Source: Solirubrobacterales bacterium
GTDB lineage: Bacteria > Actinomycetota > Thermoleophilia > Solirubrobacterales > JACPNS01
Assembly (NCBI GenBank): GCA_049276635.1
Contig: JBASWU010000049.1
Coordinates: 12,981 to 76,980, forward strand
Direction of reading: 5' to 3'
DNA: 64,000 bases
The position numbers were made by a program, and so were the translations under genes. Under the pieces are notes generated by a model. It did no database searches, was not told where the DNA came from, and was given only the letters and a program-made list of their open reading frames with translations. The first letter of the stretch is position 1, and each line of letters starts with the position of its first letter. Shown here piece after piece: positions 18,707 through 35,909 of this stretch.

Positions 18707-19330
18707 TTAGCGCGCGTCGATCACGTCGAAGACGTCGAGCATTAACGACAGCTGCTCGGCGAGGTCTTCGAGCGACCCGTCGTTTTCGATCACGTAGTCG
18801 GCGCGTTGGGCCTTCTCGGCTGCGCTCATCTGACGAGCGTCACGGGCGCCGAGCTCGGAAATCCCGGTGCCGCGGGCTTCGGCGCGACGTTTGCGCGTCG
18901 CTTCGTCGACCGTGATCGCGACGGTCTTGTCGAACGCCTGGTCGATGCCGGATTCGAACAACAGCGGGACCTCGACGACGATCACGCGTGGTTGCGGGTC
19001 GGCCGCGTCGCCTGCCGCGCGAAAGTCCAGAATCCGCTTACCGACCCGCGGCCAGACCAGTTGCTCGAGCCAGGCCCGCGCGGCGGGGTCGGCGAAGACT
19101 TCCGCCGCGACCGCCTCGCGATCGACCGCTCGATCCTTGACCACGCCCGAGCCGAGACGTTCGGCGACCAGCCCGATCACCTCTGGATCCTCGTAGATCT
19201 CGTGGACGACCTGATCGGCGGACAACGTCGCCGCGCCGAGCTTCTCGAGTTCGGCGAGCGCGGCCGACTTACCGGACGCGATCGTGCCGGTCAGGCCTAC
19301 AAACGGTGGCCGCGGCCGGCCGGCGGTCAT
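18707..19330 (-). CDS. coaE: Dephospho-CoA kinase
   Basis: VGLTGTIASGKSAA P-loop. Immediately downstream of rpsA, as in other actinobacteria. Confidence 0.9.
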   Translation of the reverse strand: MTAGRPRPPFVGLTGTIASGKSAALAELEKLGAATLSADQVVHEIYEDPEVIGLVAERLGSGVVKDRAVDREAVAAEVFADPAARAWLEQLVWPRVGKRILDFRAAGDAADPQPRVIVVEVPLLFESGIDQAFDKTVAITVDEATRKRRAEARGTGISELGARDARQMSAAEKAQRADYVIENDGSLEDLAEQLSLMLDVFDVIDAR

Positions 19331-19332
19331 GC

Positions 19333-20862
19333 CTAGGCGGTGGTCTCGGCTTCGGTCTCGGCTTCGGCCGGGGCGTCTTTCGCGGCCTCGGACTCGGCGT
19401 CGGCGCCGGGCTCGGGTTCGGGTTCGGTGGCTGCCGCGGGATCGGCGTCGGACGCGCCGACGGAATCCGCCACCGGGACCTCGGGTTCCGCGACTAGAGC
19501 CTCGGGCTCGGATGCCAGGGTCTCGGGCGCCGGTTCGGCTTCGGACTCAGGCTCGGGCTCGGGTGCCTGTTCGGCCGCCTCGGAGCCGGGCGCGGTATCG
19601 GCGACCACGGCTTCGGGAGCCTCGACGGCGACTTCAGAATCGGCCGTGACGTCCGCCTCGGACTCGTCGTTAGCCTCGTGGTCGGCTGCTTCGCCGGTGT
19701 CTTCGCCGCCGCCGAGATCGACCGGAATCAGTGTCTGACCCTCGACCTGCTTGGCCGAAAGCGAAAGCCGGCGACGTTCGGTGTCGATCTCGAGGATGCG
19801 GACGCGGACCATGTCGCCCTCGTTGAGAACCTGGCGCGGATTCTCGACGTGCTGCTCGGAAAGCTCGCTGATGTGCACGAGACCCTCGACACCGTTGTAA
19901 ATCTCGACGAAGGCGCCGAACGAAACGATCTTGGTGACGCTGCCCTCGAGCACGTCGCCGACGTGATGGGTGTCGATGACCTTCTGCCACGGGTCTTCTT
20001 GGGTCTGCTTGAGGCCCAGCGAGATGCGCTGGCGGTCGTGATCGATGTCGAGCACCTTGACAGAGACGACGTCGCCGATCGAGACGACCTCGCCCGGGTG
20101 GTTGACGTGGCTCCAGGAGAGCTCGGAAATGTGAATCAGACCGTCGATGCCGTCGAGGTCGACGAACGCGCCGAAATCGACGATGTTGCTGATCGCGCCT
20201 TCGACGACCGAGCCGCGCTCTAGGTTGTCGATGATCTGCTGGCGGACCTCCTTGCGCTCCTCTTCGAGGATCGCGCGGCGGCTGAGTACGACGTTGTTGC
20301 GCGAGCGGTTGAGCTCGATGACCTTGCAGCGGACGGTCTGAGTTTTGAACTCGTCAAGATCCTGTACGCGGCGGATGTCGACGAGCGACGCCGGCAGAAA
20401 TCCACGGATGCCGAGGTCGACGATCAGGCCGCCCTTGACGACCTCGATCACCGTTCCCTCGACCGGCTCGCCGGACTCCGACGCGGCCTCGATCTTGCGC
20501 CACGCCTTCTCGAACTTGGCGCGCTTCTTGGAGAGAACCAGCCGGCCGTCGGCGTCTTCCTTTGTTACGACCAGCGCGTCAACCGTCTCGCCGAGGGAGA
20601 CCTCATCTTCGGGGTTGACGTTCTTGCGAATCGAGAGTTCGTGGACCGGGATCACGCCTTCGGACTTGAATCCGATATCGACGAGCACTTCGTCGCGATC
20701 GATGCGAACGACTTCACCCTGCACCACATCACCGTCTTCGAACGCGACCAGCGTCGCCTCGTAGTTGGGGACGATCTTGCCGTCTATTTCGAGTAGAAGT
20801 CCGTCTGATCCGGGGACTTCGGTGCCGGTGAGGGGCTGGATTTCGGTGATTGTTGTTGACAT
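19333..20862 (-). CDS. rpsA: 30S ribosomal protein S1
   Basis: Four S1 OB-fold repeats (GxVxxIxxFGAFVDL-type) followed by an acidic E/A/P-rich tail of about 120 aa. Confidence 0.95.
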   Translation of the reverse strand: MSTTITEIQPLTGTEVPGSDGLLLEIDGKIVPNYEATLVAFEDGDVVQGEVVRIDRDEVLVDIGFKSEGVIPVHELSIRKNVNPEDEVSLGETVDALVVTKEDADGRLVLSKKRAKFEKAWRKIEAASESGEPVEGTVIEVVKGGLIVDLGIRGFLPASLVDIRRVQDLDEFKTQTVRCKVIELNRSRNNVVLSRRAILEEERKEVRQQIIDNLERGSVVEGAISNIVDFGAFVDLDGIDGLIHISELSWSHVNHPGEVVSIGDVVSVKVLDIDHDRQRISLGLKQTQEDPWQKVIDTHHVGDVLEGSVTKIVSFGAFVEIYNGVEGLVHISELSEQHVENPRQVLNEGDMVRVRILEIDTERRRLSLSAKQVEGQTLIPVDLGGGEDTGEAADHEANDESEADVTADSEVAVEAPEAVVADTAPGSEAAEQAPEPEPESEAEPAPETLASEPEALVAEPEVPVADSVGASDADPAAATEPEPEPGADAESEAAKDAPAEAETEAETTA

Positions 20863-20994: not shown

Positions 20995-22131
20995 ATGCCG
21001 GTTCGCGCGACCAAACGAGGGATTCTGCGCACTCCGATCGGCGGAGACTACGACGTGGTGATCTGCGGCGCGAGTTTCGCCGGCCTTTCGGTGGCTCGCG
21101 AGCTGCGCGGCAGCGGTGCGCGCGTACTGGTGCTGGACCGATACGACATCGGCGAGCGGGCGACCTCGGCCTGCGCGACGCCGACGATCTGGCTGGAGCG
21201 AATGGGCCTCGGCGCGGCGATCCGGCAGTCATTTGACTCGCTCACGATCCAGGTCGAGGACCGGCCGGTCAGATTCAAGACGCCGTGGCCGTTCTCGACC
21301 TTCGACTACCGGCGCTTATGCGAGCTGCTGGCCGCACAGGGTGATTTCGAATTCGAGACCGCGACGGTGCGAGGGCCGGCCGTGCTCTCGGGGGTCGCAC
21401 CGAACGCGCCGGTGGTGATTTCCACCGACCGCGGCGATGTCCGAGCGCCGCTGGTGGTCGACGCGCTCGGCTGGCGGCGTGTTCTAGCGCCAGACCGGGA
21501 GCGGCCGCAGCCGCCGGCGGCGCTGCTCTCGCGCGGCCTCGAGGTTCACCCGGCGGGGTCGTCTGATCACCTGAAGATCTGGATCGACCAGCGGTTGGTC
21601 GCGGCCGGATACGGGTGGTCGTTCCCGGCCGGCGACGAGCTGCGGGTCGGGGTCGGATCGTTCGATCCCCGCGATCATGTTCGCGAGCCGACGGTGAGGC
21701 TGGCCGAATCGGAGGGCCTGATGGCCGAGCGGTTTCAAGGCAACTGGATTCCGCACGCCTTGCGCCCGGCGACCGACGGAGTGGTTTTCTGCGCCGGCGA
21801 CTCGGCCGGTCACTGCCTGCCGTTGAGCGCCGAAGGGATCAGGACGGCGTTCTACTTCGGGATTGCCTGCGGACGAGAGCTGCGATCGGTGCTCGACGGG
21901 CGGTTCGAGCGCGCGACCGCCCTGCGCCGCTACCGCGAGTTTTCGGCCTCCCACGAACGCGCGTTCAGACTTCTGCTGCGCGCTCAGCGAACGCTGCCGC
22001 GCGTGCCGGTGTCGGCGCTGTCGGCCGCGGTGCGCCTGATGAGCGTGCGCGGCGTGGACCGGCGATGGATGAACCGGTATCTCAACGCGGCGCACCCGGA
22101 CTTCGTGCACAGCGGTGGTACCGCCGTCTGA
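20995..22131 (+). CDS. FAD/NAD(P)-binding oxidoreductase (geranylgeranyl-reductase-like)
   Basis: N-terminal dinucleotide fold DYDVVICGASFAGLSVARELRGSGARVLVLDR and a later GDSAGHCLPLSAEGI motif. Confidence 0.6.
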   Translation: MPVRATKRGILRTPIGGDYDVVICGASFAGLSVARELRGSGARVLVLDRYDIGERATSACATPTIWLERMGLGAAIRQSFDSLTIQVEDRPVRFKTPWPFSTFDYRRLCELLAAQGDFEFETATVRGPAVLSGVAPNAPVVISTDRGDVRAPLVVDALGWRRVLAPDRERPQPPAALLSRGLEVHPAGSSDHLKIWIDQRLVAAGYGWSFPAGDELRVGVGSFDPRDHVREPTVRLAESEGLMAERFQGNWIPHALRPATDGVVFCAGDSAGHCLPLSAEGIRTAFYFGIACGRELRSVLDGRFERATALRRYREFSASHERAFRLLLRAQRTLPRVPVSALSAAVRLMSVRGVDRRWMNRYLNAAHPDFVHSGGTAV

Positions 22132-22164: not shown

Positions 22165-23904
22165 TCAGGTATTGCGGTAAAGCGGCCCGTCGCCACCTTC
22201 AGGTGTCGTGAGACGACCGCCTTTGGCGGTGATCGCCCCACACTGAACGCAGTTCGAGTGATTGACAGTCACCTCGACCTCACCGCTTTCGGGTGCGTCC
22301 GGAGGCAGCTCGTAGACGCCCGCAGGGCACATCGACTCCCACATCTCGGCAATCTCGCGCGGCACCGTGCGCTGAACCCTGATGTGACTCGGCGCGTCAT
22401 CGCGAGTCGCGTTGCCGGAAATGAAGACGCTTGAGAGTTTGTCGAAGATGTACTTGCCGTCTGGCTTGGGATATCGCTTGCTGGAATCGCCGATAAATAT
22501 TGGTTGCTCGTTGGCGGGATGAACGCGCCAGCGTCCGCCAGGGAATCGCCCCTTGGTCGCGATCATCAGATTCACCAACGGCCCACCACGTAGTAGGCCC
22601 TTCTGAAATGGCTGACGCGAATTGCGCTGCTCGTAGAGGTCCTTGCCGATGATCGATGTCTCAACAGCTTCTTCGTAACTCTCGAAATTGCGCTCGCCTG
22701 ACTTGAGTGATCCGTAGATCGATTCGGCCGCGAGAACGCCGGATGTAATCGCGTAATGCACTCCTTTAAGAGCCGCGAGATTGACCATCCCCCCGCCGTC
22801 ACCAACGATGACGGCTCCCGGCATCGAGAGTTTCGGCATAGCCCAGTACCCGCCGGCAGGAATAGCCTTCGCGCCCCATGACACTCGCTCGCCTCCTTCG
22901 AGAATCTTTCGCACCATCGGGTGAGTCTTGAACAGTTGCAGAAGGTCGTGACAAGAAGTCGTTGCATCGGCGTAGTCGAGGTCCAGGACGAAGCCAATCG
23001 AGACCAAGTCGTCGCCGGTCTTCTCGTCCTTCATCGGGTAGATCCACGAGCCGCCGATCTGGTGGTATTTGGACGAGATCTTCAGTGGCCAGCCTGCCAA
23101 CGTGTGGATCACGCGATTGAGCGGCTTCGGAACTTTCCACACCTCTTTGACGCCGAGCTCCCAGACCATCGGTTCGCGACCTTCCCCGAGATTGAACTCA
23201 GCGACCGCCGCGTCGGTGAGGTGGCCCCAACATCCTTCGGCGAGAACGGTCGCTCGTGCCGCGATGTCCGTGCCCGGTTCGAAGTTGCCAAGCGGCTCGC
23301 CATCTTTGCCGCGACCTTTGTCGCCGGACCGGACGCCTTCGACGACGCCATCCCTGACGATCAGTTGCGCTGCGGATGTCTCGGTCAGGAAATAGGCGCC
23401 GGATTCTTCAGCCTGCTTCTGCATGAATCGGCACAGCGCGGCGACAGAGATGACCTCGTTGCCCTTGTTGTGCTGCGGGGAAGGAGCTGGTATACGGACC
23501 TTCGTTTTGCCGTTCGGGAGGAGATAGATCGCTTCCTTTGTGACCTCGCCGAACGCGAATCCCTCCTGACGCCACTGCTCGCGAGTCAGGTCGGGAAAGA
23601 GATCCCGCAGTGCCGACGGTCGCATCACCGCACCGGAAAGATTGTGCCCTCCGCACGTTTTCGCCTTCTCGATCACGGCGACCGGGACTTCGCCGAGGCT
23701 CTCCATCAATGCCGGATCGGCGCTCAACAACTGAAGCAAGCGGTTGGCGCAGGCCAAGCCGGCCGTTCCACCGCCGACGATGGCGACCCCGATGTCGATC
23801 CGGTCTTCCTCGGCGGCGAGCGATCGCTTGATGAACTCCCGGCGAGCGTCGACAGGGGGTGGAAACTCCGCCGGGCGGGGTTTCACGCTTCGATTTCCCG
23901 CCAT
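22165..23904 (-). CDS. Electron-transfer flavoprotein:quinone oxidoreductase (ETF-QO)
   Basis: 579 aa. VAIVGGGTAGLACA FAD fold and a C-terminal 4Fe-4S region (CPAGVYE...HSNCVQCGAI). A GGAAGGA RBS lies upstream. Confidence 0.85.
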   Translation of the reverse strand: MAGNRSVKPRPAEFPPPVDARREFIKRSLAAEEDRIDIGVAIVGGGTAGLACANRLLQLLSADPALMESLGEVPVAVIEKAKTCGGHNLSGAVMRPSALRDLFPDLTREQWRQEGFAFGEVTKEAIYLLPNGKTKVRIPAPSPQHNKGNEVISVAALCRFMQKQAEESGAYFLTETSAAQLIVRDGVVEGVRSGDKGRGKDGEPLGNFEPGTDIAARATVLAEGCWGHLTDAAVAEFNLGEGREPMVWELGVKEVWKVPKPLNRVIHTLAGWPLKISSKYHQIGGSWIYPMKDEKTGDDLVSIGFVLDLDYADATTSCHDLLQLFKTHPMVRKILEGGERVSWGAKAIPAGGYWAMPKLSMPGAVIVGDGGGMVNLAALKGVHYAITSGVLAAESIYGSLKSGERNFESYEEAVETSIIGKDLYEQRNSRQPFQKGLLRGGPLVNLMIATKGRFPGGRWRVHPANEQPIFIGDSSKRYPKPDGKYIFDKLSSVFISGNATRDDAPSHIRVQRTVPREIAEMWESMCPAGVYELPPDAPESGEVEVTVNHSNCVQCGAITAKGGRLTTPEGGDGPLYRNT

Positions 23905-24198: not shown

Positions 24199-25653
24199 CT
24201 ATCGGGCGTTCACCCCTCGCTCGATTGCACGCCCGACCGCGATCAGCGTGGTTTCGGCGTGCGGCGCGGCAACGATCTGCAACCCGATCGGCAGGCCCGA
24301 CGGTGCCGGCGCGCTGGGCACCGACATCGCGGGAAAGCCGACAAAACTCCAGAGAATCGCGTTGCGCGACAAGATCGTCAGGTACTCGTCGGCGTCATCG
24401 ACGACCGGCGCGACGACGGGCACGGTCGGCATCACCAGCGCGTCGACGCCGGCGATGGCCGTTAGCATCTCCTCGCGCAGCCAGGCGCGGTAGCGCTGGG
24501 CGTCGATGTAGTCGGTGGCGAGTACCTCGTCGGCGGCGTCGAGCTGGTCCCGGACCTCCTCCCAGTACAGTGCGCGATCGTTGTGCAATCCGCGGTGAAA
24601 GGCAGCCGCCTCGCAGCGTGAGACGATCAGCCCGCAGGCGTTGGCACCGGCGAAATCAGGGTCGGCCGGGCGGTCCACGCCGACCAGCTCGGCACCGGCG
24701 GCGATCAGTAGGTCCAGCGCGAACTCGATCGACTCCTCGACTTCGGGCTCGGCCCCGTCCCACGCCGCGCGCGGAATTCCGATCCGCATCCCCTTGACGC
24801 CCGTGCCGACGCCTTCGGAGACGCGCGCACCGTCACGCAGGCAGTCGAGCATGATCGCCGCGTCGGCCACGCCGGGCGCGATCACACCGACGTGATCCAT
24901 AGTCCAGCTTAGGGGTACGACGCCGGCGGTCGGCACCGTGCCGTATGTCGGCTTCAACCCCACCACCCCGCTCAACGCCGCCGGCACACGCGAAGAGGCC
25001 CGTGTGTCGGTGCAGATCGAGGCGATTCCCATGCCGGTCGCGACCGCCACGGCGGATCCGCCGCTGGATCCGCCCGGGATGCGGGTGTCGTCGTGCGGGT
25101 TGCGCGACTGCGGCGAGGTGACGCCGAGCGCGAACTCGTGGGTCGCGACCTTGCCGAGTATCACCGCGCCCGCGTCGCGCAGGCGCCGGACCGCCCAGGC
25201 GTCGTGACTCGCCCGATGCTCGTACGCCAGCGAGCCGGCTCGCGTCGTGGCGCCCTTCACGTGAATGACATCCTTTACGGAGATCGGAATTCCATGCAGC
25301 GGGCCTCGATGGCGACCCGCCTTGAGTTCGTTGTCGAGCTTGGCCGCCTGCTCGCGCGCCTCGACCTCCATGATTTCGACGAAGGCGAACAGCCGGTCGT
25401 TGTCTTTTTTGATCGCCTCAAGCGAGCGCTCGACCAGATCGGCGGCAGTCACCTCGCCGCCGTCGATCAGGTGGCGGGTCGCGCCGATCGTTCCCAGCAA
25501 CGGGGCCCCGCCGGGACTGCCCGGCTCTTCGCCCGGCGCGATCGCCTCGCCCGGCCAGACATCAAAGCCGGGGCGTCGTTCGAGATCGTCGTTGCGCCAA
25601 CCCTTGAGATGCTCAAGTGCCCAGGCGAAAGCATTTGTGGCAACGCTCGTCAT
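24199..25653 (-). CDS. Amidase-signature (AS) family amidase
   Basis: GIPISVKDVI (catalytic Lys), [12 protein letters not shown] (Ser-cisSer). About 60 aa of N-terminal extension. Last gene of the operon, 10 nt after the hydrolase stop. Confidence 0.88.
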   Translation of the reverse strand: MTSVATNAFAWALEHLKGWRNDDLERRPGFDVWPGEAIAPGEEPGSPGGAPLLGTIGATRHLIDGGEVTAADLVERSLEAIKKDNDRLFAFVEIMEVEAREQAAKLDNELKAGRHRGPLHGIPISVKDVIHVKGATTRAGSLAYEHRASHDAWAVRRLRDAGAVILGKVATHEFALGVTSPQSRNPHDDTRIPGGSSGGSAVAVATGMGIASICTDTRASSRVPAALSGVVGLKPTYGTVPTAGVVPLSWTMDHVGVIAPGVADAAIMLDCLRDGARVSEGVGTGVKGMRIGIPRAAWDGAEPEVEESIEFALDLLIAAGAELVGVDRPADPDFAGANACGLIVSRCEAAAFHRGLHNDRALYWEEVRDQLDAADEVLATDYIDAQRYRAWLREEMLTAIAGVDALVMPTVPVVAPVVDDADEYLTILSRNAILWSFVGFPAMSVPSAPAPSGLPIGLQIVAAPHAETTLIAVGRAIERGVNAR

Positions 25654-25663
25654 CGCGCGGCCC

Positions 25664-26371
25664 CTAAACCGTCTCGAGTGCCGCGAGCAGTTTCTCGCTG
25701 TCGCTGACGGAGCCGAACACGCCGCCCTGCATCTTGACCATCTTCAGCGCGGCCTCGTAGTTGCCGTAATCGGTGGCGCCGGTGCAGTCGGAGAGCAGCA
25801 GACACTCGTAGCCGATGTCGTTGCCCTCGCGCATCGTAGTGTGCACGCAGACATCGGTGGTGATTCCGGTGAAAATCAGATTCTCGATCTTCTTCGAGCG
25901 CAGGATCAAGTCGAGATTGGTCGCGCAGAACGCGCCCTTCCCGGGCTTGTCGATGACGATCTCGCCGTCCACCGGATAAAGCTCCTCGACGATGTCCCAG
26001 CCCGGTTCACCGATTACAAGGATGCGGCCGCAGGGACCGGCGTCGCCGATCCCGGCGCCCATCTGCTTCGAGCGCCAGAGCTTGTTCGGCGGACAGTCCG
26101 AGAGATCCGGCTGGTGGCCTTCGCGCGTGTGCACGACGGTCAGGCCGAGTTCGCGCCAGCGCGCCAGCACTTTTTGCGTCGCCGGAATGCCAGCGCGCGT
26201 CAGGCCGAGGTCGTAACCCATGTGATCGACGTACCCGCCGGGGCCGCAGAAGTCGGTCTGCCAGTCGATCAGGATCAACGCCGTGCGCTGGAGGTCGAGG
26301 TTCTGGTTGTAGGGCCAGTCGTAGGGATCGCCGGCGACGGAGATCGCGGCGGAATCGGTGGCGGCGGTCAT
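25664..26371 (-). CDS. Isochorismatase-fold cysteine hydrolase, biuret-hydrolase (BiuH)/triuret-hydrolase-like
   Basis: [76 protein letters not shown] and [12 protein letters not shown]. The Asp-Lys-Cys triad is intact. I place the start at ATG 26371, overlapping the upstream stop (ATGA). Assignment to the BiuH subfamily is from memory of that family's motifs. Confidence 0.75.
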
Positions 26372-26991
26372 TCGGTCTCTCCTTTTTGGGAAACGGCGGA
26401 CGCGGTCGTGGTGGAGTTGACGAAATAGCACGCCTCAATCAAAGCGTCGCTGGTGCCAACGGCACCGAAGATTCCGCCGGACATCAATATCTGTGAGATC
26501 GAGGCCTTCTGCAGCTCCGGGTCGTACGCCACGCACGCGTCCTCCAGAAAGAGGCATTCAAAACCAAGATCATTGGCCCGGCGCAGTGTCGAGTGAACGG
26601 CGATCTCCGTCGGCCAGCCGGCAAACGCCAGCTTCTCGATCCCGTTTGTGCGCAAGACGAGATCGAGATTGCCGCCGAGGAAGGCGTTCGCCGTCGGCGC
26701 TTCGATCACCATGTCGCCGGGCGCCGTCTTCGGCAGCGAACCGCCGCCGCAACTGATCCAGATCACCGCGGCCCCCAGCTCGCGCAGCGGGCCGGCGAGT
26801 TTCGACGCCGCCGTCAAGGCCATCTCGCGCGATCGCTCGTCGCCCTCGCGGCCCGTCGCGGGCCCCGAGACCACCACGAGCGCAAAGCTCGCGGTGGTCA
26901 ACTCGCCGTCGTAGGGCCACGGGTACGGCCGGGAACCGGCGACCGCGATCTCGCCCTCTGTTGTGGCTTTGATCGCGGCCGCCGCGCTCAT
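26368..26991 (-). CDS. Isochorismatase-fold paralogue lacking the catalytic triad (predicted pseudoenzyme)
   Basis: It shares [22 protein letters not shown] and [13 protein letters not shown] with its neighbour. At the triad positions it has VVVSGP for LIDWQ (Asp lost), IEAPTANAF for IDKPGKGAF (Lys lost) and TEIAVHS for TDVCVHT (Cys to Ala). Confidence 0.7.
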
Positions 26992-28118
26992 GAGGTCGGG
27001 ATCTTTCCGGTCACGCCCTCGACGAGGTAGTCGGTCGATTCGAGATCGGTCGGGCTCGGCGATTCGCCGTCCGGGATCTTGACCGCACCAGCCTGGTCTT
27101 TGATCGGACCGGTGAAGGGCTTGAAGTCGCCTGACTTCATCTCTTTTTTCTTGGCTTCGATCTCGTCCTGAACGTCTTCGGGAACGGCCGAGCCGAACGG
27201 CGCGAGCTGAATGATCTCGCTGTCGGCAAAGCCGGCGCGGTACATCGCGTCGTACTTGGAGCCCTTCCAGTCACCGGCGGCGATCGTGTCGGCCATGTCG
27301 GTGTAGAGCGGTCCCCAGTTCCACACCGACCCGGTCAGCCAGCCCTTGGGCGCCAGCGATGAGGCGTCGGCGTGGTAACCAACCGACATGATGCCCTCGC
27401 GCTCGGCCGTCTCGACGATCGTCTTGGTGCAGTCCTGGTGCTGGCTGATCACGTCGACATCCTTGTTGATCAAGGACTTCGCGGCCTCTGCCTGCTTGCC
27501 GGGGTCGCACCAGTTGTTGGTGAAGACCACCGTGGTGGTGACGTCGGGGTTGACCGACTGCGCACCGAGCTGGAACGCGTTGATGTTTAGCAGCGTCTGC
27601 GGAATCGGCACGGCGACGACGTAGCCGAGCTTGTTGGTCTTGGTCTGCTTGCCGGCGGCGATACCGGTGAGGTACTGCGCCTCGTAGATACTGCCGAAGA
27701 ACGTGCCCAGGTTGTCGGCGGTCTTCAGGCCGCCCTGGTGCATGAACGTCACGTCGGGGTGCTTTGCGGCGACTTCCAGCGCGGGCTCGAGGTGGCCGTA
27801 GCTGGTCGGGAAAATGATCGTCGCGCCGTCCTTGATCATCTTCTCCATCACTCGCGAGGCCTCTGATGTCTCGGGCACGTTCTCGGCCTGAAGGACCTTG
27901 TAGCCGGCCTTCTCAACCTCGAGCGAGCCTTCGTAGGCCGCCTGGTTGTAGCCGTAGTCGTTCTTCGGTCCGACGTAGAGGAAGCCGACCGTCGGCTTGT
28001 CGCCGGAGGCGGAGTCGCCCGAGTTTGAATCCGAGCTGGAGCCACAAGCGCTCACACCGACCGCGGCTACCAAGCCGAGGGCCATGAGCAGCAGCCACTT
28101 AACCGTCCAATTACGCAT
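26988..28118 (-). CDS. BMP-family (basic membrane protein / PnrA-like) ABC substrate-binding lipoprotein
   Basis: Lipobox LVAAVGVSAC and S/D-rich linker, then VGFLYVGPKNDYGYNQAAYEG...IIFPTSYG...VGYHAD, typical of the Bmp family. An AAAGGAAG RBS lies upstream. Confidence 0.85.
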   Translation of the reverse strand: MRNWTVKWLLLMALGLVAAVGVSACGSSSDSNSGDSASGDKPTVGFLYVGPKNDYGYNQAAYEGSLEVEKAGYKVLQAENVPETSEASRVMEKMIKDGATIIFPTSYGHLEPALEVAAKHPDVTFMHQGGLKTADNLGTFFGSIYEAQYLTGIAAGKQTKTNKLGYVVAVPIPQTLLNINAFQLGAQSVNPDVTTTVVFTNNWCDPGKQAEAAKSLINKDVDVISQHQDCTKTIVETAEREGIMSVGYHADASSLAPKGWLTGSVWNWGPLYTDMADTIAAGDWKGSKYDAMYRAGFADSEIIQLAPFGSAVPEDVQDEIEAKKKEMKSGDFKPFTGPIKDQAGAVKIPDGESPSPTDLESTDYLVEGVTGKIPTS

Positions 28119-28182: not shown

Positions 28183-29094
28183 TTACGTTCCGCCCGGCGC
28201 GAACACGGCCTTGAGGCCGGCGGGCATTTTCTGAGCCTGTTTGCGACTCGCGATCGCGAGCACGACGAGGGTCAGAACGTAAGGAGTCATTCCGAGCAGG
28301 AACGCGGAGATGCTCAGGCCCTCGGCCTGAAGCTGAAGCTGAAGGCTGACCGCCAGTCCGAAAAGCAACGCGCCGAGCGCGGCGCGGATCGGCAGCCAGG
28401 AGGCGAAGATCACCAGAGCGACGGCGACGAAGCCGCGGCCGACGGTGACGTCTTCGACCCAGTTGAGCGTGGAGGCCAGCACCAGCTGGGCGCCGCCCAT
28501 GCCGGCGAGCGCGCCGCCGGAGGTGACGGCGATATAACGCACCTTGCGCGGGGAGTGACCGTAAGCGAAGACGACGTCGGGATTCTCGCCGGTAGCGCGG
28601 AGGATCAGCCCCCAGCGAGTCTTCTTCATGAACCACCACAGCGCCGGACCGAGCAGCAGCGCGCCATAGGTGAGCAGGTCATAGTTGAACAGCACGTTGC
28701 CGAGGAACGGGATATCGCTCAACAGCGGTATCGCGACCGGCTCGAAGCCGGTGATCTTCGCGTCGACGAAGCTCGTGCCCAGCGCCGCCGTCAGGCCGAG
28801 TCCGAGGAACGTGATTCCGAGGCCGCTGGCGAGCTGGTCGGCCCGGCGGTCGATCACCAGATAGGCGTGCAGCAAGGCAAGCAGACCGCCGAAGGCCAGC
28901 CCGGCAAGCGCGCCGATGTACGCCGCACCCGTCCACGACGTGACCGCGAACGCACCGAGTGCTCCGGCCAGCATCGAGCCTTCGGTTCCGAGGTTGACGA
29001 TTCCCGAGCGCTCCGAGACCGTCTCGCCCTCCGCGGCGTAGATCACGCAGGCGCCGTAGCGCACCGCGCCGGTCAGCAGGTTCTCGATGAACAT
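28183..29094 (-). CDS. ABC transporter permease (BMP-type system)
   Basis: 303 aa from [11 protein letters not shown]. It is polytopic and carries NLGTEGSMLAGA. The 619-aa track ORF is an upstream artefact. The ATG overlaps the preceding TGA by 1 nt (TGATG). Confidence 0.85.
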   Translation of the reverse strand: MFIENLLTGAVRYGACVIYAAEGETVSERSGIVNLGTEGSMLAGALGAFAVTSWTGAAYIGALAGLAFGGLLALLHAYLVIDRRADQLASGLGITFLGLGLTAALGTSFVDAKITGFEPVAIPLLSDIPFLGNVLFNYDLLTYGALLLGPALWWFMKKTRWGLILRATGENPDVVFAYGHSPRKVRYIAVTSGGALAGMGGAQLVLASTLNWVEDVTVGRGFVAVALVIFASWLPIRAALGALLFGLAVSLQLQLQAEGLSISAFLLGMTPYVLTLVVLAIASRKQAQKMPAGLKAVFAPGGT

Positions 29095-30128
29095 CAGCCG
29101 CCCGGTCCTTTGAGCGCGGCCGGGCGCTGAGCGAGAACGAACAGGACGATCGCGGCCATCAACACGTAGACCGAGGAGGCAGGCAGCCCGAAATCGATCT
29201 GCAGGTTGTCGCCGTAGACCGAAATCGCGGCCAGCAGCACGGCCGCCGACGGGATCCAGGCGGTACGGTGCCCGACCATCCAGCTGCAGAGGAAACCGAT
29301 GTAGCCGAAACCGGCGGCCATGTCGGATCGAACGCGGATCTCGGTACCGGAAAGCTCGATCGAGCCGGCGAGCCCGGCGATCGCTCCGCCGAGCAGCAGA
29401 GCGACCAACACGGTCTTGCCGACCGGGATGCCGCCGCGGCGCGCGGCCTCCGGATTGCCGCCGACGACCTTCGCTTTGAAGCCCCAGCGCGAGTGCTCGA
29501 TCAACAGCCAGATCCCGACCGCCACCGCGATCGCGATCACCAGCCCGAAGTGCACCCCGTAGTCGCCGAAGTGCGGAAGCCGCGCCGATTCGCTGATCTC
29601 CGGCGCGATCGCGAATCCGAATGACTCCGGATCCTTGAGCGCGTCGTTGACGAGAAAGCCCAGCAGCAGCGCGGCCACGTAGTTGAGCAGCAGAGTCGAG
29701 ATCGTCTCGTTGACGTTGAACAGGTTCTTTAGGAACGCCGCGATACCGGCCCACAACAGACCGCCGAGCAAGCCGGCCGCGAGGATCGCGGGAAGCATCA
29801 CGACGATCGGCAGCGCGTCCTCGACGACGAACGCGAAGCCGCCGGCGGCGGCCGCGCCGATCAAGAGCTGGCCTTCGCCGCCGACGTTGATCAGACCCGC
29901 ACGCGCCGGAAGCGCGACGGCCAGCGCGGTGAGTATGAACGGAGTCGCGCGCACCAGCACGTCGGGCTGAGAAATCGCGAAGACCGGCAGGATCATCCAG
30001 AGCAGCAACGGCAGTGCGATCGGCGAGGCGATCCTGAACCACCTGTTTTGCGGGATGTGGGCGCGCGGGTCGAACGAACGCTTGGCCGGCGGCGCGCCTT
30101 CGGGAAAGGCGAGTTCGGGCGCCGTCAC
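29094..30128 (-). CDS. ABC transporter permease (BMP-type system)
   Basis: Polytopic, with the [13 protein letters not shown] motif. The GTG start at 30128 follows GGAGG and overlaps the ATPase stop (GTGA). Confidence 0.8.
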
Positions 30129-31684
30129 GACGCCTCCCGGCCGAGCATCATCGCGCCGATCTCGCCGCGCGTGGTTTCGGACGGTTTGAGATCGCCGGCG
30201 AGCCTGCCGCCGTGCAGCACCGCGATCCGGTCGGAGACCGCGAAGAGCTCGTCTAGATCCTCGGAGACAAAGAGCACGGCGGCGCCTTCTTGGGCGCGCG
30301 CGAAGAGCAGTTCGTGGGTGGTCCGGACGCTGATCAGATCGAGTCCGCGTGTCGGGTAGCAAGCAACGACGACGCCGGGCTCGCGGGCGAGCGCGCGGAC
30401 GATCATCAGCCGCTGGATGTTGCCGCCCGACAGCGAATCGACACGGCGCGACGGCTCGGCCAGGCCGATCGCCCGCGCCGACGGCAGCGCGGCGGTCCGC
30501 TCATGAACCGACGGCCAGTGATAGCCAATGCGCGTCCTCGGCGGATCGATCCCACCGATCGCCATGTGCTCGGCGATATTGAGGCCGGGAACGACCTCCA
30601 TCGCGATCGGGTCCTCGGCCATACAGGCAACGCCCTCGGCGATCGCCTCGGTGACGTGCTTGTTCTCGATGTAGACGCCGCTGATCGCGATCCGGCCGTT
30701 GAAAACCGGGCGCAGACCTTGCATCGCCTCGGCAAGCTCGCGCTGGCCACCGCCGGAGACGCCGGCGATGCCGATCACCTCTCCGCGCTCGGCGACGAGA
30801 CTGAACTCGTCGATCGCCGGCAGGCCGTTGTCGCCGTGCACCGTGATGTGTTCGAGCATCAGCGCCGGGCCGTCGACGTGCGCGACGATGTTCGGTCGAT
30901 GTGGCAGGTCGGGCACCGATTGACCGACGACCGCCTCGATCAACTCGCCGTCGGTCATCGCCGGCAGATCGTCGGACCGCATCGCGACCTTGCCCTGACG
31001 CAACACCGTGACACGGTCGCAAACGGCGCGCACGTCGGGGATCTTGTGGGTGATGATCGCCAGCGCCATGCCCTGGTCGCGCAGATCGCGGATCACGTTC
31101 ATCAGGCCGTCGACCTCTTGCGGCGCGAGCAGGCTGGTCGGTTCGTCGAGAATCAGCACCTTGGCGCCGCACATCAGGACCTTGAGGATCTCGGCCTGCT
31201 GGCGCTCGCTCATCGAGAGTTCGTCGATCGTACGGTAGGGGTCGACGCTCATGCCGTACTTGGCCGCGAGGGCCTGGAGTTCGTCGGCGATCTTTTTCTG
31301 GTCGAGCATGAAGCCGTCGCCGGGGAGCGCGAGCGCAATGTTCTCGAGCACGGTGAGCGCCGGGATCAGGCGGAAATCCTGGAATACAAGGCCGATGCCG
31401 GCGGCGCGGGCCTTGCCGGGGGAATCGATCACGATCGGCTCGCCGTCGACCAGAACTTCGCCCTCGTCGGGCACGTTAACCCCGTAGAGCGACTTGGCGA
31501 GTGTCGACTTGCCGGCGCCGTTTTCGCCGAGGATCGCGTGAACTTCGCCGGGAAACAGCTCGAGATCGACCGAGTCATTTGCGACCAGAGTGCCGAAACG
31601 CTTGGTCAAGCCCTTGACCTGGATCGTCGCGGCCTCGGCCTCGGTTGCGGGCGCCGCGGATTCAGTGACCAGTCCGGTGCTCAT
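30125..31684 (-). CDS. ABC transporter ATP-binding protein, tandem ABC domains
   Basis: 519 aa. Walker [10 protein letters not shown], signature LSMSERQQ, a Walker B ILDEPT, and a second degenerate domain with LSGGNIQR. Confidence 0.9.
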
Positions 31685-32430
31685 TGGTCGAGCTCTTCGA
31701 CGTCGAACATGCGCGCGAGCATCGCGCCGACTCGCTGCTCGACGACCCGCGCGCTGCGGTCGATGTGCACCCGCATCAGCGCGGCCGCGGCGTCAATCTC
31801 GCCGGTCAGGATCGCTTCGACGAGTTCGAGGTGTTCATCGATCGTGGTCTTGATGCGCGCGCCGGTCGTGAAGTCGTGGACGCGAAGGATACGGATCCGC
31901 TCGTTGATGTCGCGTAGGTATCGAACGGCGGGCTGGTTGCCGGCGGCGGCGGCGAGACGCTCGTGAAAAGCCTCGTCGGCGTGAACGAAATCCGGCGTCT
32001 CCAGCCCGGACGCGCCGCGCTTGTACCGCTCACCGAGATCGACCCAGACGTCGCGGAGATCCGTGAGTTTGCCGGTGTCGCCGGAGGCGGTCGCGCGACG
32101 AACCACGAGATCTTCGACCACCACGCGGACCTCGTAGAGCTCGCGGATCGTGCTCGCCTGCGGCGGCTGCGGCGTGATCCCGCCGTTTGCGTGCTTGACC
32201 ACGTGCCCGTCGGCCTGTAGGCGGTGTAGGGCTTCGCGTACCGGAGTGCGGCTGCAGCTGAAGCGATCAGCGAGATGTTCCTCGACCAATCGCTGGCCGT
32301 ACGGGAATTTTCCGAGCAGGAGATCCTGGCGGACCCCCTGATAGACGCGCTCGGCGATCGAGCGCGCGCCGCCAACGCCACCTCCGTCTGTGTGCAGCGT
32401 TGTATCCAGGTTTGTAGACACCGAGATCAT
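31681..32430 (-). CDS. GntR-family transcriptional regulator (FadR/FCD subfamily)
   Basis: N-terminal wHTH ([31 protein letters not shown]) plus a helical FCD-like C-domain. Its stop overlaps the ATPase start (ATGA), making it the first gene of the operon. Confidence 0.85.
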
Positions 32431-33026: not shown

Positions 33027-35735
33027 TCACTTGGCTGCGAGCCAGTTTGGACCACTGCCGACGCTGACGCCGAGCGGCGGGTCCAGCGGGTAGGCGTCGG
33101 CCATCGCCGTGTGCGCGAGCTCGGCGATCTGGCCGGCCTCGGCCGCCGGGCCCTCGAACAGCAGTTCGTCGTGAATCTGCATCACGAGCTTGGTCTCGAC
33201 ATCGGCCTCGCGCAACGCCGCGCTGGCCTTGATCATCGCGATCTTGATGATGTCGGCGGCCGTCCCCTGGACCACGGTGTTGACCGCGAGGCGCTCACCC
33301 AGCTTGCGGGTCTGCACCTGACTGGAGCTGAGTTCGGGAATCGCGCGGCGACGGCCGAGCAGCGTCGTGACGTAGCCGTCCCGCTTGGCCTGCTCGACGG
33401 TCGAATCCATGAAGCGCTGGACACCGTCGAATCGCTCGAGGTACCGCTTGATGAACTCGGCGGCCTCGTCGCGCGGGATCTTCAGGCGATCACTGAGCCC
33501 GAACGCTCCCAGCCCGTAGATGATGCCGAAGTTGACCGCCTTGGCGCGGTCGCGGGTCGCGTGGTCGACGGCGGCCGGGTCGATGCCGAAGATCGCGGCG
33601 GCCGTCTCGGTGTGAACGTCCTCGCCCCGGCGGAAGATCTCGCGCAGGGTCTCGTCCTCGGCGACCTGGGCGAGCACGCGCAGTTCGACCTGGGAGTAGT
33701 CGGCGCTGGTCAGCAGGCAGCCTTCCTCGGCGACGAAGCACGCCCGGATCGTGGCGCCCAGCGGCGTGCGCACGGGAATGTTCTGCATGTTGGGATTGGT
33801 CGAGCTGAGCCGGCCGGTCGCCGCGCGGGTCTGGTCGAGCGTGGTGTGAATGCGGCCGTCCTTCGGCGAAATCATCTTCGGCAGCGCGTCGACGTAGGTG
33901 GACTTCAACTTGGTCAGCTCACGCCAGCGCTCGATCTTCTCGACGATCGGGTGTTCGCCGCGCAGTGAAGCGAGCACGCGAGCGTCGGTGGAGTATCCGG
34001 TCTTACCCTTGCGGCCGCGCGACAGCTCGAGCTTGTCGAAGAGGATCGGGGCGAGCTGCTTGGGCGAGCCGATCGTGAACTCCTCGCCGGCCAGCTCGTA
34101 GATATCGGCCTCCAGCTGCGCGATCTCGGCCTCGAACCCCTTTGACGCCTCGGCCAGCGCCTCGACGTCGAGCTTCATCCCGTTGCGTTCGATCTCGACG
34201 AGCACCGAGACGAGCGGGAGCTCGACCGTTTCGAAGATCTCGGTCAGGCCGAGCTCTTGGATCCGCGGTCTCTGAATCGCCGCGATGTCGGTCACGGCGC
34301 GCGCTTCGATCGCGAGGTCGCGCAGGGCCACGTCGATCGTCGCGTCCTCGGCCGTAGCCGGAACACCGCCGAACTCGATCAGCATTTCGCGGACGGCATA
34401 CTGGCGCCGGGCTGAATCGATCAGGTAACCGGCGATTCGCGTATCGTGCGCCAGCACGGGCACCGGACAGTCGCTGCCGTCGAGCTGTTCTTTCAAGTGG
34501 TGTGACACCACCGCCGTTGTGCCGATCGCGTCGACGATATCGCCGACGCGCGGCGCCAGGCCGACCAGCACCGGGCCGTCCGCAGCGATCACGGCAAAGC
34601 GCGTTTCCTCGCCGGCGGCTTGATTTGCGGCATCGGCGAGCAGAGAGTCGGCGGGGCCGTCCAGTCCGGCGGCCGCCGGACGCATCAGCAAGGTCAGCTC
34701 GCCGGCCTTCAACCCGCCCAGATCTTTGACGCCGGCCTCGCGCAGCTCGAGTTCGGCGCCGCGCGGCGACCCTGACGATCCCGTCTCTGACGCCGTCAAA
34801 TCCTTGAGTTCGGCTTCGATGGCGGCGAACTCTTCGGACTGAAACATCCGCTCGACGCGGCGCAGCGGCTCGCGCAGGTCGTGTTCGCGCAGCACCTCGC
34901 GCAACGCGGCCGGGTCGATCTTGCGTTCGAAGACGCGCTCGAAGCTGAAGTCCGGCACCTCGATGTCGCGGTGCATCGTCGCGAGCTGCTTGGAGATTCG
35001 TGCGAGATCGGCGTGCTCGGTGAGGTTCTCCTTGCGTTTGGTCCCGGAGATCTTGTCGACGCTCGAGAGCACGTCCTCCAGCGAGCCGAACTCCCGCAGC
35101 AGCAGCGCGGCCGTTTTGTCGCCGATCCCCGGAACGCCCGGGATGTTGTCGGACGTATCCCCCTTCAGGCCGATGAAGTCGGGTACGAGCTTGGGCGGAA
35201 TACCGTACCGCTCGATCACGGCCGCCTCGTCGTAGAGCTTCGTGTCGGTCACGCCGCGACCGGTCGCCATGATCGCGACCTTGCCGTCGTCGACCAACTG
35301 GAACGAGTCGCGATCGCCGGTCACCACGATCACCTCGTAACCCTTGGCCTTGGCCTGCTCGGCAAGGGAGGCGATCACGTCGTCGGCCTCCCATCCGTCG
35401 ACGCGCACGTTCTCGAAACCGAATGCCTGCGACAGCGGATAGAAATGCGGCCACTGCTCGCGCAAAGCGTCGGGCTTGGCGTCGCGCTGGGCCTTGTACG
35501 GCTCGTAGATCTCGCCGCGCCCGGAGAGCCCGGCGTCCCAAACCGCGACCACGGCCGGCTTCCCGTGCTCCTCGCCGACGATCTTGAGAAACATGTTCGC
35601 GAGACCGAACAGTGCGTTGGTCGGCATGCCGCTGCCGGACACGAATGTGTCCGGCAGCGCGAAGAAGGCGCGATAGGCGAGCGAGTTGCCGTCGAGCAGA
35701 TAGAGCTTGCGGCCGGGTGAAGACACGATGCGCAT
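33027..35735 (-). CDS. polA: DNA polymerase I
   Basis: 5'-nuclease N-terminus (LYLLDGNSLAYRAFFAL), then the pol domain with motif A (LTSADYSQVELRVLA), motif B (RDRAKAVNFGIIYG) and motif C (QIHDELLFE). I place the start at ATG 35735; the track ORF adds 40 unlikely residues. Confidence 0.96.
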   Translation of the reverse strand: MRIVSSPGRKLYLLDGNSLAYRAFFALPDTFVSGSGMPTNALFGLANMFLKIVGEEHGKPAVVAVWDAGLSGRGEIYEPYKAQRDAKPDALREQWPHFYPLSQAFGFENVRVDGWEADDVIASLAEQAKAKGYEVIVVTGDRDSFQLVDDGKVAIMATGRGVTDTKLYDEAAVIERYGIPPKLVPDFIGLKGDTSDNIPGVPGIGDKTAALLLREFGSLEDVLSSVDKISGTKRKENLTEHADLARISKQLATMHRDIEVPDFSFERVFERKIDPAALREVLREHDLREPLRRVERMFQSEEFAAIEAELKDLTASETGSSGSPRGAELELREAGVKDLGGLKAGELTLLMRPAAAGLDGPADSLLADAANQAAGEETRFAVIAADGPVLVGLAPRVGDIVDAIGTTAVVSHHLKEQLDGSDCPVPVLAHDTRIAGYLIDSARRQYAVREMLIEFGGVPATAEDATIDVALRDLAIEARAVTDIAAIQRPRIQELGLTEIFETVELPLVSVLVEIERNGMKLDVEALAEASKGFEAEIAQLEADIYELAGEEFTIGSPKQLAPILFDKLELSRGRKGKTGYSTDARVLASLRGEHPIVEKIERWRELTKLKSTYVDALPKMISPKDGRIHTTLDQTRAATGRLSSTNPNMQNIPVRTPLGATIRACFVAEEGCLLTSADYSQVELRVLAQVAEDETLREIFRRGEDVHTETAAAIFGIDPAAVDHATRDRAKAVNFGIIYGLGAFGLSDRLKIPRDEAAEFIKRYLERFDGVQRFMDSTVEQAKRDGYVTTLLGRRRAIPELSSSQVQTRKLGERLAVNTVVQGTAADIIKIAMIKASAALREADVETKLVMQIHDELLFEGPAAEAGQIAELAHTAMADAYPLDPPLGVSVGSGPNWLAAK

Positions 35736-35909
35736 CTTATGGCGCGGTGCGGGTGTCCAGGTTCGTCCATGCCCAGACCGCGGGGGCAGGCTCGGCATCA
35801 TGCGCAGAGAGTATGTTGACCCGACAGGGCTCGCGATGGCGTGCCTCGTGCCCATGCGCTTGGAACAAAAACCCCGGACGACTTCGTCCTTTGAGGAGAA
35901 CCAGAACCA

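Follow-up and report, generated by a model that had tools for sequence, protein, structure and literature searches.

Biuret and triuret are fertilizer impurities and intermediates in the breakdown of s-triazines and, possibly, of purines. The biuret amidohydrolase BiuH constitutes the reference enzyme for the biuret step and is in use in plant biotechnology; to our knowledge, all BiuH biochemistry so far has been performed on homo-oligomers from Rhizobium, Rhodococcus and Herbaspirillum. BiuH is a dimer of tight dimers, in which helices alpha2 (residues 95-102), alpha4 (178-186) and alpha5 (202-213) form a tight-dimer interface of 1800 Å2, distinct from a second interface of 700 Å2 (PMC5806882). 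Residue Gln215 extends into the neighboring subunit's active site, where it binds the distal amide of biuret, and together with Val218 it gates the main substrate tunnel; the Q215A substitution raises KM 25-fold and lowers kcat/KM by ~420-fold (PMC5806882). In TrtA, Ile205 at the second of these two gating positions holds the Gln further out, allowing the larger triuret to fit (PMC7948467). Published biuret and triuret gene clusters combine biuH, trtA, trtB, atzF, bmpA-nupABC and gntR (PMC12625717; PMC7948467). Here we analyze a stretch of 64,000 nucleotides from a Solirubrobacterales bacterium (contig JBASWU010000049.1, positions 12,981 to 76,980), hereafter the window, in which an isochorismatase-like gene at positions 26368-26991 of the minus strand directly precedes a BiuH gene. 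We label its product DEAD, and refer to a BiuH encoded next to a DEAD gene as partnered. On balance, we consider it somewhat probable that DEAD is a catalytically dead BiuH paralogue acting as the obligate non-catalytic partner of the BiuH encoded downstream.

According to our results, the functional unit in much of soil Actinomycetota, and in at least one metagenome-assembled genome (MAG) of Chloroflexota, is likely to consist of BiuH and a dead paralogue, encoded by coupled genes or fused. DEAD would thereby represent a pseudoenzyme partner in a superfamily and a pathway without a described example, and one that appears widespread in soil Actinomycetota. No description of a dead isochorismatase-like partner, of a heteromeric BiuH or of a DEAD-BiuH fusion was found in the open-access full-text literature, beyond which a prior mention is possible; the initial annotation of this DNA, which had regarded the arrangement as undescribed for BiuH-type hydrolases, agrees with that literature.

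Homology, catalytic residues and age of DEAD

The two genes and the positions of the former catalytic triad are located as follows.

26368-26991, minus strand: DEAD, an open reading frame (ORF) encoding a triad-less isochorismatase-like BiuH paralogue of 207 amino acids (evidence: ORF, Pfam PF00857, BLASTP and AlphaFold2)
25664-26371, minus strand: BiuH, an intact biuret amidohydrolase of 235 amino acids (NF050097; PDB 6azo, E = 1e-106)
26866-26868, minus strand: Ser42 of DEAD, aligned with catalytic Asp36 of BiuH; mostly Gly in the family, Asp in 3 of 127 representatives
26698-26700, minus strand: Ala98 of DEAD, aligned with catalytic Lys142 of BiuH; Lys in 0 of 127 representatives
26599-26601, minus strand: Ala131 of DEAD, at the alignment position of the BiuH nucleophile Cys175; residue varies among family members (T/P/A/G/S), with Cys in 4 of 127 representatives

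The similarity between DEAD and the adjacent BiuH lies far beyond chance, with 31% identity (BLASTP, E = 1e-29) over 231 columns and 24% gaps. By profile and structure comparison, the gene downstream of DEAD encodes a genuine biuret amidohydrolase: its product scores 393.9 bits against the NCBIfam BiuH equivalog NF050097, above the cutoff of 370, matches the solved structures 6azo and 6xjm (Rhizobium leguminosarum and Rhodococcus sp. Mel) with 347-359 bits (E ~1e-103 to 1e-107), and keeps residues D36, E84, K142, K145, C175, Q215 and V218 all intact. DEAD scores 69.5 bits against the Pfam Isochorismatase profile PF00857 (cutoff 27), over residues 89-169 only (profile positions 82-164 of 175), and 107.6 bits against NF050097, below the cutoff of 370 and restricted to profile positions 123-220. 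An AlphaFold2 model of DEAD based on a 40-sequence alignment reached a predicted local distance difference test (pLDDT) score of 93.2 and a predicted template-modeling (pTM) score of 0.89. Foldseek searches with this model identified BiuH as the best match (TM 0.73), followed by TrtA and RutB and including also YecD, with probability 1.00 and TM values of 0.63-0.74. By its Rossmann-like alpha/beta fold with a parallel beta-sheet and by its Pfam score, DEAD belongs to the isochorismatase-like superfamily, and it falls outside the cysteine hydrolases, BiuH and TrtB in every membership test. No solved structure of any DEAD-family member was found, the BiuH structures being the nearest. The DEAD family profile scores 141-156 bits against the BiuH structures and ~105 bits against TrtA, and a neighbor-joining tree separates DEAD, TrtA-like proteins and BiuH into three clades, with the partnered BiuHs grouping together. 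Judged by homology, these comparisons show DEAD to derive from a duplication of BiuH.

All three residues of the Asp-Lys-Cys triad are replaced in DEAD, which also lacks the equivalents of BiuH Lys145, Glu84, Phe41, Tyr47 and Thr171. Among the positions that bind biuret, those of Asp36, Phe41, Tyr47, Lys145 and Thr171 are replaced and variable in DEAD and that of Gln215 is fixed as Ser; the alignments show every biuret-contacting side chain to be gone. The lid insert spanning BiuH residues 86-135, including interface helix alpha2, has about nine poorly conserved aligned counterparts in DEAD, the loop at BiuH 37-63 is occupied by unrelated sequence, and the TrtA cis-peptide site Val157-Thr158 corresponds to Trp126-Pro127 in DEAD and Ile170-Thr171 in BiuH. 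The initial annotation had described the upstream paralogue as keeping fold-defining blocks while replacing the entire triad and lacking the long insert of its partner, and it read the sequence correctly on each of these counts, including the presence of all the sequence blocks it quoted. It had also proposed looking for alternative catalytic residues, and none emerge: the family alignments contain no family-specific invariant polar residue beyond Ser171 and Glu129 (Asp in BiuH). Nearly all invariant residues of the DEAD family are conserved in BiuH too and map to the core of the fold, to helix alpha4 or to the trans loop, and the former pocket positions vary across the family. By its homology to an active enzyme and its loss of essential catalytic residues, DEAD would qualify as a pseudoenzyme.

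A search of 5.8 billion proteins returned 174 DEAD homologues at E <= 1e-5 and located the window protein itself in a Solirubrobacterales MAG. None of the best 120 of them (36-72% identical) carries a complete triad, and a single one keeps both Asp36 and Lys142. A profile of 40 diverse DEAD members was then used against 1.84 billion cluster representatives (clusters at 50% identity), and the triad was scored on the 127 single-domain representatives among the best 150 matches, checked one by one; the triad is present in 0 of 127. We rely on these individually checked representatives because the 230 representatives obtained at E <= 1e-30 may include true BiuHs, which also pass this threshold (~140-156 bits), making that count unusable as a family size. 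Compared with its closest relative (locus L089, with the same gene order and 4-nt overlaps), DEAD shows a ratio of nonsynonymous to synonymous substitution rates (dN/dS) of 0.22, against 0.07-0.15 for its operon neighbors, pointing to selection that is relaxed but clearly purifying. Since its homologues lack the triad and dN/dS stands at 0.22, we regard DEAD as an old dead family and not as a product of recent decay, which the initial annotation had suggested would be betrayed by relatives retaining the triad. That DEAD evolves faster than its neighbors would suit a recently decayed duplicate heading towards a pseudogene, but this explanation is barely credible and is already refuted by the family-wide loss of the triad and the dN/dS value, by the ~20 residues that remain invariant in the 40-member alignment, by an ORF that has stayed intact in two or more phyla and in over 127 clusters at 50% identity, and by a conserved gene order and the existence of natural fusions.

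Linkage to BiuH and retained interface elements

A scan of one genome per species yielded 80 loci, 17 with a DEAD gene and 63 without. The DEAD loci come from Solirubrobacterales, Cellulomonas, Microbacteriaceae, Acidimicrobiia, Ilumatobacteraceae, Gaiellaceae, Nocardioides, Streptomyces and Demequinaceae, and a BiuH with the full D-E-K-C-Q set is encoded directly after DEAD in 16 of the 17, the remaining locus ending at a contig edge. In all seven further contigs from distant family members, one of them a Dehalococcoidia MAG, the gene after DEAD encodes another isochorismatase-like protein; it has the length of a BiuH gene, is called BiuH-type on that basis and not by its residues, and is cut by the contig end in two cases. 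The usual locus order is GntR, ATPase, permease, permease, Bmp, DEAD, BiuH and amidase. In most loci DEAD directly follows the Bmp binding-protein gene; a single gene separates the two in L081 and L086, and the gene order differs in the fusion loci L008 and P0308. A live TrtA-like paralogue is found in none of the 17 DEAD loci, and BiuH is accompanied by a TrtA-like gene in 48 of the 63 loci without DEAD.

In a Gaiellaceae MAG (L008), DEAD and BiuH form a single continuous ORF of 462 codons. Searching with the concatenated window pair produced 2644 matches, and at least 62 of the best 120 clusters, which were the ones examined, are natural DEAD-BiuH fusions of 398-523 amino acids, most covering ~95% of the query and each combining an N-terminal domain without the triad with a C-terminal BiuH domain that is fully live. 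Fusion P0323 is encoded between a Bmp gene and an amidase gene, and P0308, like L008, ahead of GntR and transporter genes. Fusion this frequent and constant in domain order provides the strongest genomic evidence available that DEAD and BiuH may work as one physical unit. The initial annotation had proposed a conserved pseudoenzyme acting as a subunit of a hetero-oligomer with the hydrolase, and had suggested surveying the co-occurrence of the dead and live pair; the survey bears out the pairing, and co-occurrence, fusion and the BiuH residue 98 described below lend comparative support to the proposal.

The junctions of DEAD with its neighbors, the elements that it retains and the BiuH residue associated with its presence map to the following positions.

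26368-26371, minus strand: ATGA overlap of the DEAD stop and BiuH start codons (plus-strand 'tcat')
26988-26991, minus strand: ATGA overlap of the Bmp binding-protein stop and DEAD start codons (plus-strand 'tcat')
26914-26928, minus strand: N-terminal P-Y-x-W-P motif, invariant in the DEAD and BiuH families
26548-26613, minus strand: DEAD residues 127-148, the former nucleophile loop and the helix equivalent to BiuH alpha4; most conserved block, near-identical to BiuH (RxANDRGYECL)
26461-26481, minus strand: S171-G-G-I-F-G-A177, equivalent to the BiuH trans loop Q215-G-G-V218-F-G; invariant in alignments A1 and A3
26078-26080, minus strand: BiuH Leu98, in dimer-interface helix alpha2

The DEAD/BiuH overlap recurs in L001, L019, L044, L082, L086, L088 and L089, and the Bmp/DEAD overlap in L087, L088, L089 and L090. 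The BiuH start codon is preceded at 7 nt by a strong Shine-Dalgarno sequence, AAAGGAGAG, located within the 3' end of DEAD (26368-26385, minus strand), and the DEAD start has a weak one, GGAAAG, 12 nt upstream. Given this difference in strength, translation of DEAD may depend more on coupling to the Bmp gene than translation of BiuH does on coupling to DEAD. The ATGA overlaps reported on both sides of DEAD by the initial annotation are present; the stoichiometric co-expression that it drew from them reaches beyond the overlaps themselves, BiuH having a strong Shine-Dalgarno sequence of its own. A -1 frameshift at the ATGA overlap joining both frames into a fusion is not claimed, and GAGACCGAATGA contains no slippery site.

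Within the same fused chains, pairwise identity averages 44% for DEAD domains and 78% for BiuH domains. What is conserved in DEAD comes down to the PYxWP motif, some positions of the core, residues 127-148 and S171-A177; purifying selection has preserved the beta-sheet core, the alpha4 helix, the PYxWP motif and the trans loop. The alpha4 equivalent, residues 134-146, retains the BiuH-specific RxANDRGYECL. The trans loop reads M-Q-G-G-V-F-G in all 78 BiuHs and M-S-G-G-I-F-G-A in DEAD, with Ser and Ile each present in 125 of 127 representatives; the heptad is frozen except at just the two gating residues, where DEAD and BiuH differ, and both differences are fixed.

On the side of BiuH, residue 98 is the only class-specific position when the 16 partnered sequences are compared with the 62 others. 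All 16 partnered BiuHs have Leu here, as do 49 of the 52 rows of fusion alignment A3, and the 62 unpartnered ones all carry Arg (or Gln, Lys or His). Helix alpha2, which bears this residue, makes symmetric contacts in the BiuH homodimer and is deleted in DEAD. An unpartnered BiuH from Acidimicrobiia (L025), with a TrtA-like neighbor and without DEAD, nests in the partner clade and does not have Leu98. The pattern suggests that the live partner BiuH may have adapted to DEAD.

Proposed architecture of a DEAD-BiuH unit

In the arrangement that we favor, DEAD and BiuH would form a hetero-oligomer, with DEAD most probably standing in for one of the two BiuH protomers of the tight dimer, and the single live site of each pair would be completed in trans by S171-G-G-I174 of DEAD instead of Q215-G-G-V218 of BiuH. 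Such a loop swap changes both the tunnel-gating and the distal-amide residues, and should consequently alter gating or substrate preference, not merely hold the enzyme together. A tentative extension, which we consider rather doubtful, casts DEAD as a specificity-switching subunit whose S-G-G-I loop enlarges or re-gates the BiuH pocket, enabling the heteromer or fusion to hydrolyze a larger or different ureide. The candidate substrate of this switched heteromer is triuret, substituting for the absent TrtA, while BiuH-BiuH pairs would still handle biuret.

Several results weigh against a tight heterodimer of this kind. AlphaFold2 prediction of the concatenated pair, using 51 natural fusions as the alignment, folded both domains (mean pLDDT 87.2) with a pTM of 0.57, approximately the value of two confidently folded, unplaced domains, and supports no specific interface. 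Gln215 and Val218 are invariant in partnered BiuHs, which is unexpected if their loop enters only a dead pocket and would better fit an architecture of two BiuH and two DEAD subunits (BiuH2 + DEAD2). Because Q215A costs BiuH most of its kcat/KM (PMC5806882), a site that Ser completes would be expected to hydrolyze biuret poorly; with Ser in place of Gln215, therefore, the options are a different substrate or a tight dimer that is not a heterodimer. The Leu98 correlation, in turn, is largely clade-bound, with L025 as the single within-clade control, and the strong ribosome-binding site of BiuH means that DEAD and BiuH need not be made at a 1:1 ratio.

The invariance of Gln215, Val218 and all biuret-binding residues in partnered BiuHs, together with the placement of the window BiuH above the equivalog cutoff, is also what would be expected if DEAD were a pure scaffold, a possibility that we take seriously without expecting it to hold. 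DEAD2 and BiuH2 homodimers would then stack via the small tetramer interface, DEAD2 replacing one BiuH2 of the ancestral homotetramer; the BiuH sites would stay canonical through the Gln215 of the second BiuH, without any effect on specificity, and DEAD would be kept by a dependence of BiuH assembly or stability on it, through constructive neutral evolution. The dimer-of-tight-dimers organization of BiuH, with its separate 700 Å2 interface (PMC5806882), accommodates this architecture, as does the lack of a confident canonical heterodimer from AlphaFold2, and the fusions and conserved adjacency fit it equally well. It leaves unexplained, however, why Ser171 and Ile174 are fixed in a family averaging ~44% identity, and the only partner-specific BiuH substitution falls in tight-dimer helix alpha2 and not in the tetramer interface. 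On account of Leu98 and the fixed Ser/Ile, we rate the placement of DEAD in the tight dimer somewhat higher than the scaffold.

We considered two further explanations. DEAD could be a free-standing ligand-binding or regulatory protein with a remnant pocket and no stable BiuH complex, acting as a ureide buffer or carrier from the importer to BiuH, or as a sensor. In every split-gene locus its gene is indeed situated between those of the binding protein and of BiuH, and Glu129, His133, Ser134 and Thr135 near the old pocket are invariant, but these residues are inherited from BiuH (D173, H177, T178, T179), the positions equivalent to D36, F41, Y47, K142, K145, T171, V174 and C175 vary across the family, and the at least 62 clusters in which DEAD is covalently joined to BiuH speak for a fixed physical link, making this role improbable. 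We think it quite improbable, too, that DEAD is a cryptic enzyme operating without a Cys nucleophile, for instance a carboxybiuret decarboxylase or another step feeding BiuH. The window lacks a TrtB/AtzH-like gene and DEAD loci lack TrtA, so that a pathway step could be unassigned, and carboxybiuret decarboxylation is a known step performed elsewhere by TrtB (PMC7948467). Against such an activity stand the loss of the lid and of all substrate-binding residues, the absence of family-specific invariant polar residues other than Ser171 and Glu129, the presence of an AtzH-like gene in some DEAD or fusion loci, and the nature of the known TrtB, which is of the AtzH/HpxZ type (~126 aligned positions) and not isochorismatase-like.

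If DEAD completes the live site, annotating a biuret hydrolase from the live gene alone may mis-state its substrate, and metagenomic surveys of biuret and triuret degradation would need to score the pair. The partnership of DEAD and BiuH, if true, would provide a bacterial, sequence-tractable instance of a homomer-to-heteromer transition with a dead paralogue, in which split and fused forms can be compared, and in which DEAD Ser171 and Ile174 and BiuH Leu98 are testable residues. A switch in specificity, if true, would imply a pseudoenzyme that reprograms substrate range via a shared active site, obtaining two activities from one catalytic gene.

Operon context and comparison with known systems

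The remaining genes of the operon are listed below.

24199-25653, minus strand: amidase-signature protein, 484 amino acids (Pfam Amidase, 284.7 bits)
26988-28118, minus strand: substrate-binding protein of the Bmp/PnrA family, from an ATP-binding cassette (ABC) importer (Pfam PF02608, 154.9 bits)
28183-29094, minus strand: ABC permease 2, 303 amino acids
29094-30128, minus strand: ABC permease 1, 344 amino acids, with a GTG start overlapping the ATPase stop
30125-31684, minus strand: ABC ATPase, 519 amino acids, with two ABC domains
31681-32430, minus strand: GntR/FCD-family regulator, first gene of the conserved module (Pfam GntR and FCD; position conserved in related loci)

The window genes are tightly packed on one strand in the order GntR/FCD, ATPase, permease, permease, Bmp, DEAD, BiuH and amidase, and DEAD lies in one operon, with 4-nt gene overlaps, comprising the GntR regulator, a Bmp-type ABC importer, DEAD, BiuH and the amidase. 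The amidase scores below every NCBIfam cutoff (best 293.6 versus 447) and is devoid of the allophanate-hydrolase C-terminal domain; it probably carries out the allophanate-hydrolyzing step. An amidase gene, either of the window type or a classical Amidase+AH_C AtzF, follows the DEAD-BiuH pair in most loci, and the window amidase resembles the 'gatA-like' amidohydrolase encoded beside biuH in ammonia-oxidizing archaea (PMC12625717). The composition of the operon matches that of the published biuret and triuret clusters, except that its second isochorismatase-like gene is dead, and the best explanation for the module as a whole is that it takes up a ureide, either biuret or a related compound, and breaks it down via allophanate to ammonia and CO2.

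The operon has the look of a segment inserted among housekeeping genes (13373-35855), being flanked by polA (33027-35855) on one side and by rpsA (S1), coaE and uvrB (19333-20862, 18707-19330 and 13373-15349) on the other; the same polA-to-uvrB interval holds genes for an electron-transfer flavoprotein (ETF)-ubiquinone oxidoreductase (22165-23904) and a flavin adenine dinucleotide (FAD)-containing protein (20995-22131). AtzH-like or SnoaL-type genes, relatives of TrtB and AtzH, occur beside some DEAD-BiuH pairs or fusions (L082 1-346, L090 9876-10289, L084 4079-4507), and none was found in the window operon. An alpha/beta-hydrolase constitutes a third recurrent partner of DEAD, fused as a domain N-terminal to it in P0139 and encoded directly upstream as an Abhydrolase_6 gene in L086 (6249-6995). 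Some DEAD-BiuH modules neighbor oxalurate catabolism genes (AllF/AllH) and others urea carboxylase or allophanate hydrolase genes with DUF1989 (L087 1-2040; L086 8302-13338), which ties the module to the salvage of nitrogen from purine ureides and urea.

Double isochorismatase-like proteins of 450-545 amino acids with both domains live are encoded by eukaryotic algae, including green algae and dinoflagellates (P0122, P0271-P0300 and others), exemplified by Chlamydomonas CHLRE_10g448500, Micractinium, Scenedesmus and the Symbiodinium 'rutB'. Their N-terminal domain is of the BiuH type (MQGGVFG loop) and their C-terminal domain, among those read over the whole sequence, of the TrtA type (AQGGIVGW loop), giving these proteins the appearance of BiuH-TrtA fusions and suggesting a general pairing of paralogues in the pathway. 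In the two-domain proteins of two MMETSP transcripts (P0126 and P0288), a BiuH-type domain is followed by one with Asp and Lys retained and Ala or Glu at the Cys position; these may represent independent partial inactivations. In an alphaproteobacterial MAG (L041 6837-11608), fragmented, frameshift-like ORFs of BiuH and TrtA type reflect either a decaying cluster or an assembly error.

Among described proteins, BiuH (6AZO/6AZQ, 6XJM) shares with DEAD the fold, the PYxWP motif, the RxANDRGYECL helix, the M-x-G-G-x-F-G loop and the operon context, and DEAD departs from it in the lost triad and binding residues, the deleted lid and the Gln215-to-Ser and Val218-to-Ile replacements. TrtA (Herbaspirillum sp. 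BH-1, 6XIX) is the usual second isochorismatase-like gene product of biuret clusters and has in common with DEAD an Ile three residues after the trans Gln or Ser. Unlike DEAD, it is a live enzyme with a full triad and Gln202, forms its own clade and has the loop AQG[GA]I[FV]GW as opposed to MSGGIFGA; moreover, DEAD is encoded upstream of biuH and trtA-like genes downstream. We rejected the identification of DEAD as a degenerate TrtA, its sequence and loop motif being closer to BiuH and its clade separate. Its identification as TrtB, considered because the gene occupies a place typical of accessory genes in triuret and biuret clusters, was likewise rejected: TrtB has been grouped with AtzH/HpxZ in a 126-position alignment (PMC12625717 Fig. 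S11), and these small NTF2-like proteins of the AtzH-like family PF11533 are unrelated to the isochorismatase-like fold of DEAD. They are accessory to the same pathway and their genes occur in some DEAD or fusion loci (L082, L090).

The arrangement proposed here for DEAD has its closest conceptual counterparts in the prozyme heteromers, in which a homo-oligomer with interface-shared sites was duplicated and the catalytically dead copy was kept as an obligate partner. AdoMetDC/prozyme and ADAT2/ADAT3 are such dead-paralogue heteromers. In another, the trypanosomatid deoxyhypusine synthase, activity rises 3000-fold in the heterotetramer with a dead paralogue (PMC3663545). These systems differ from DEAD in fold, pathway and kingdom, and in having a measured activation by the dead paralogue; the DEAD-BiuH pair, unlike them, is also widely a gene fusion. 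A parallel within the same pathway is provided by AtzG, the adjacently encoded non-catalytic partner required by the 1-carboxybiuret hydrolase AtzE of Pseudomonas sp. ADP (PMC6219798; PMC7948467), although AtzG, a small protein derived from GatC whose partner is an amidase-signature enzyme, is not a dead paralogue of the enzyme it serves.

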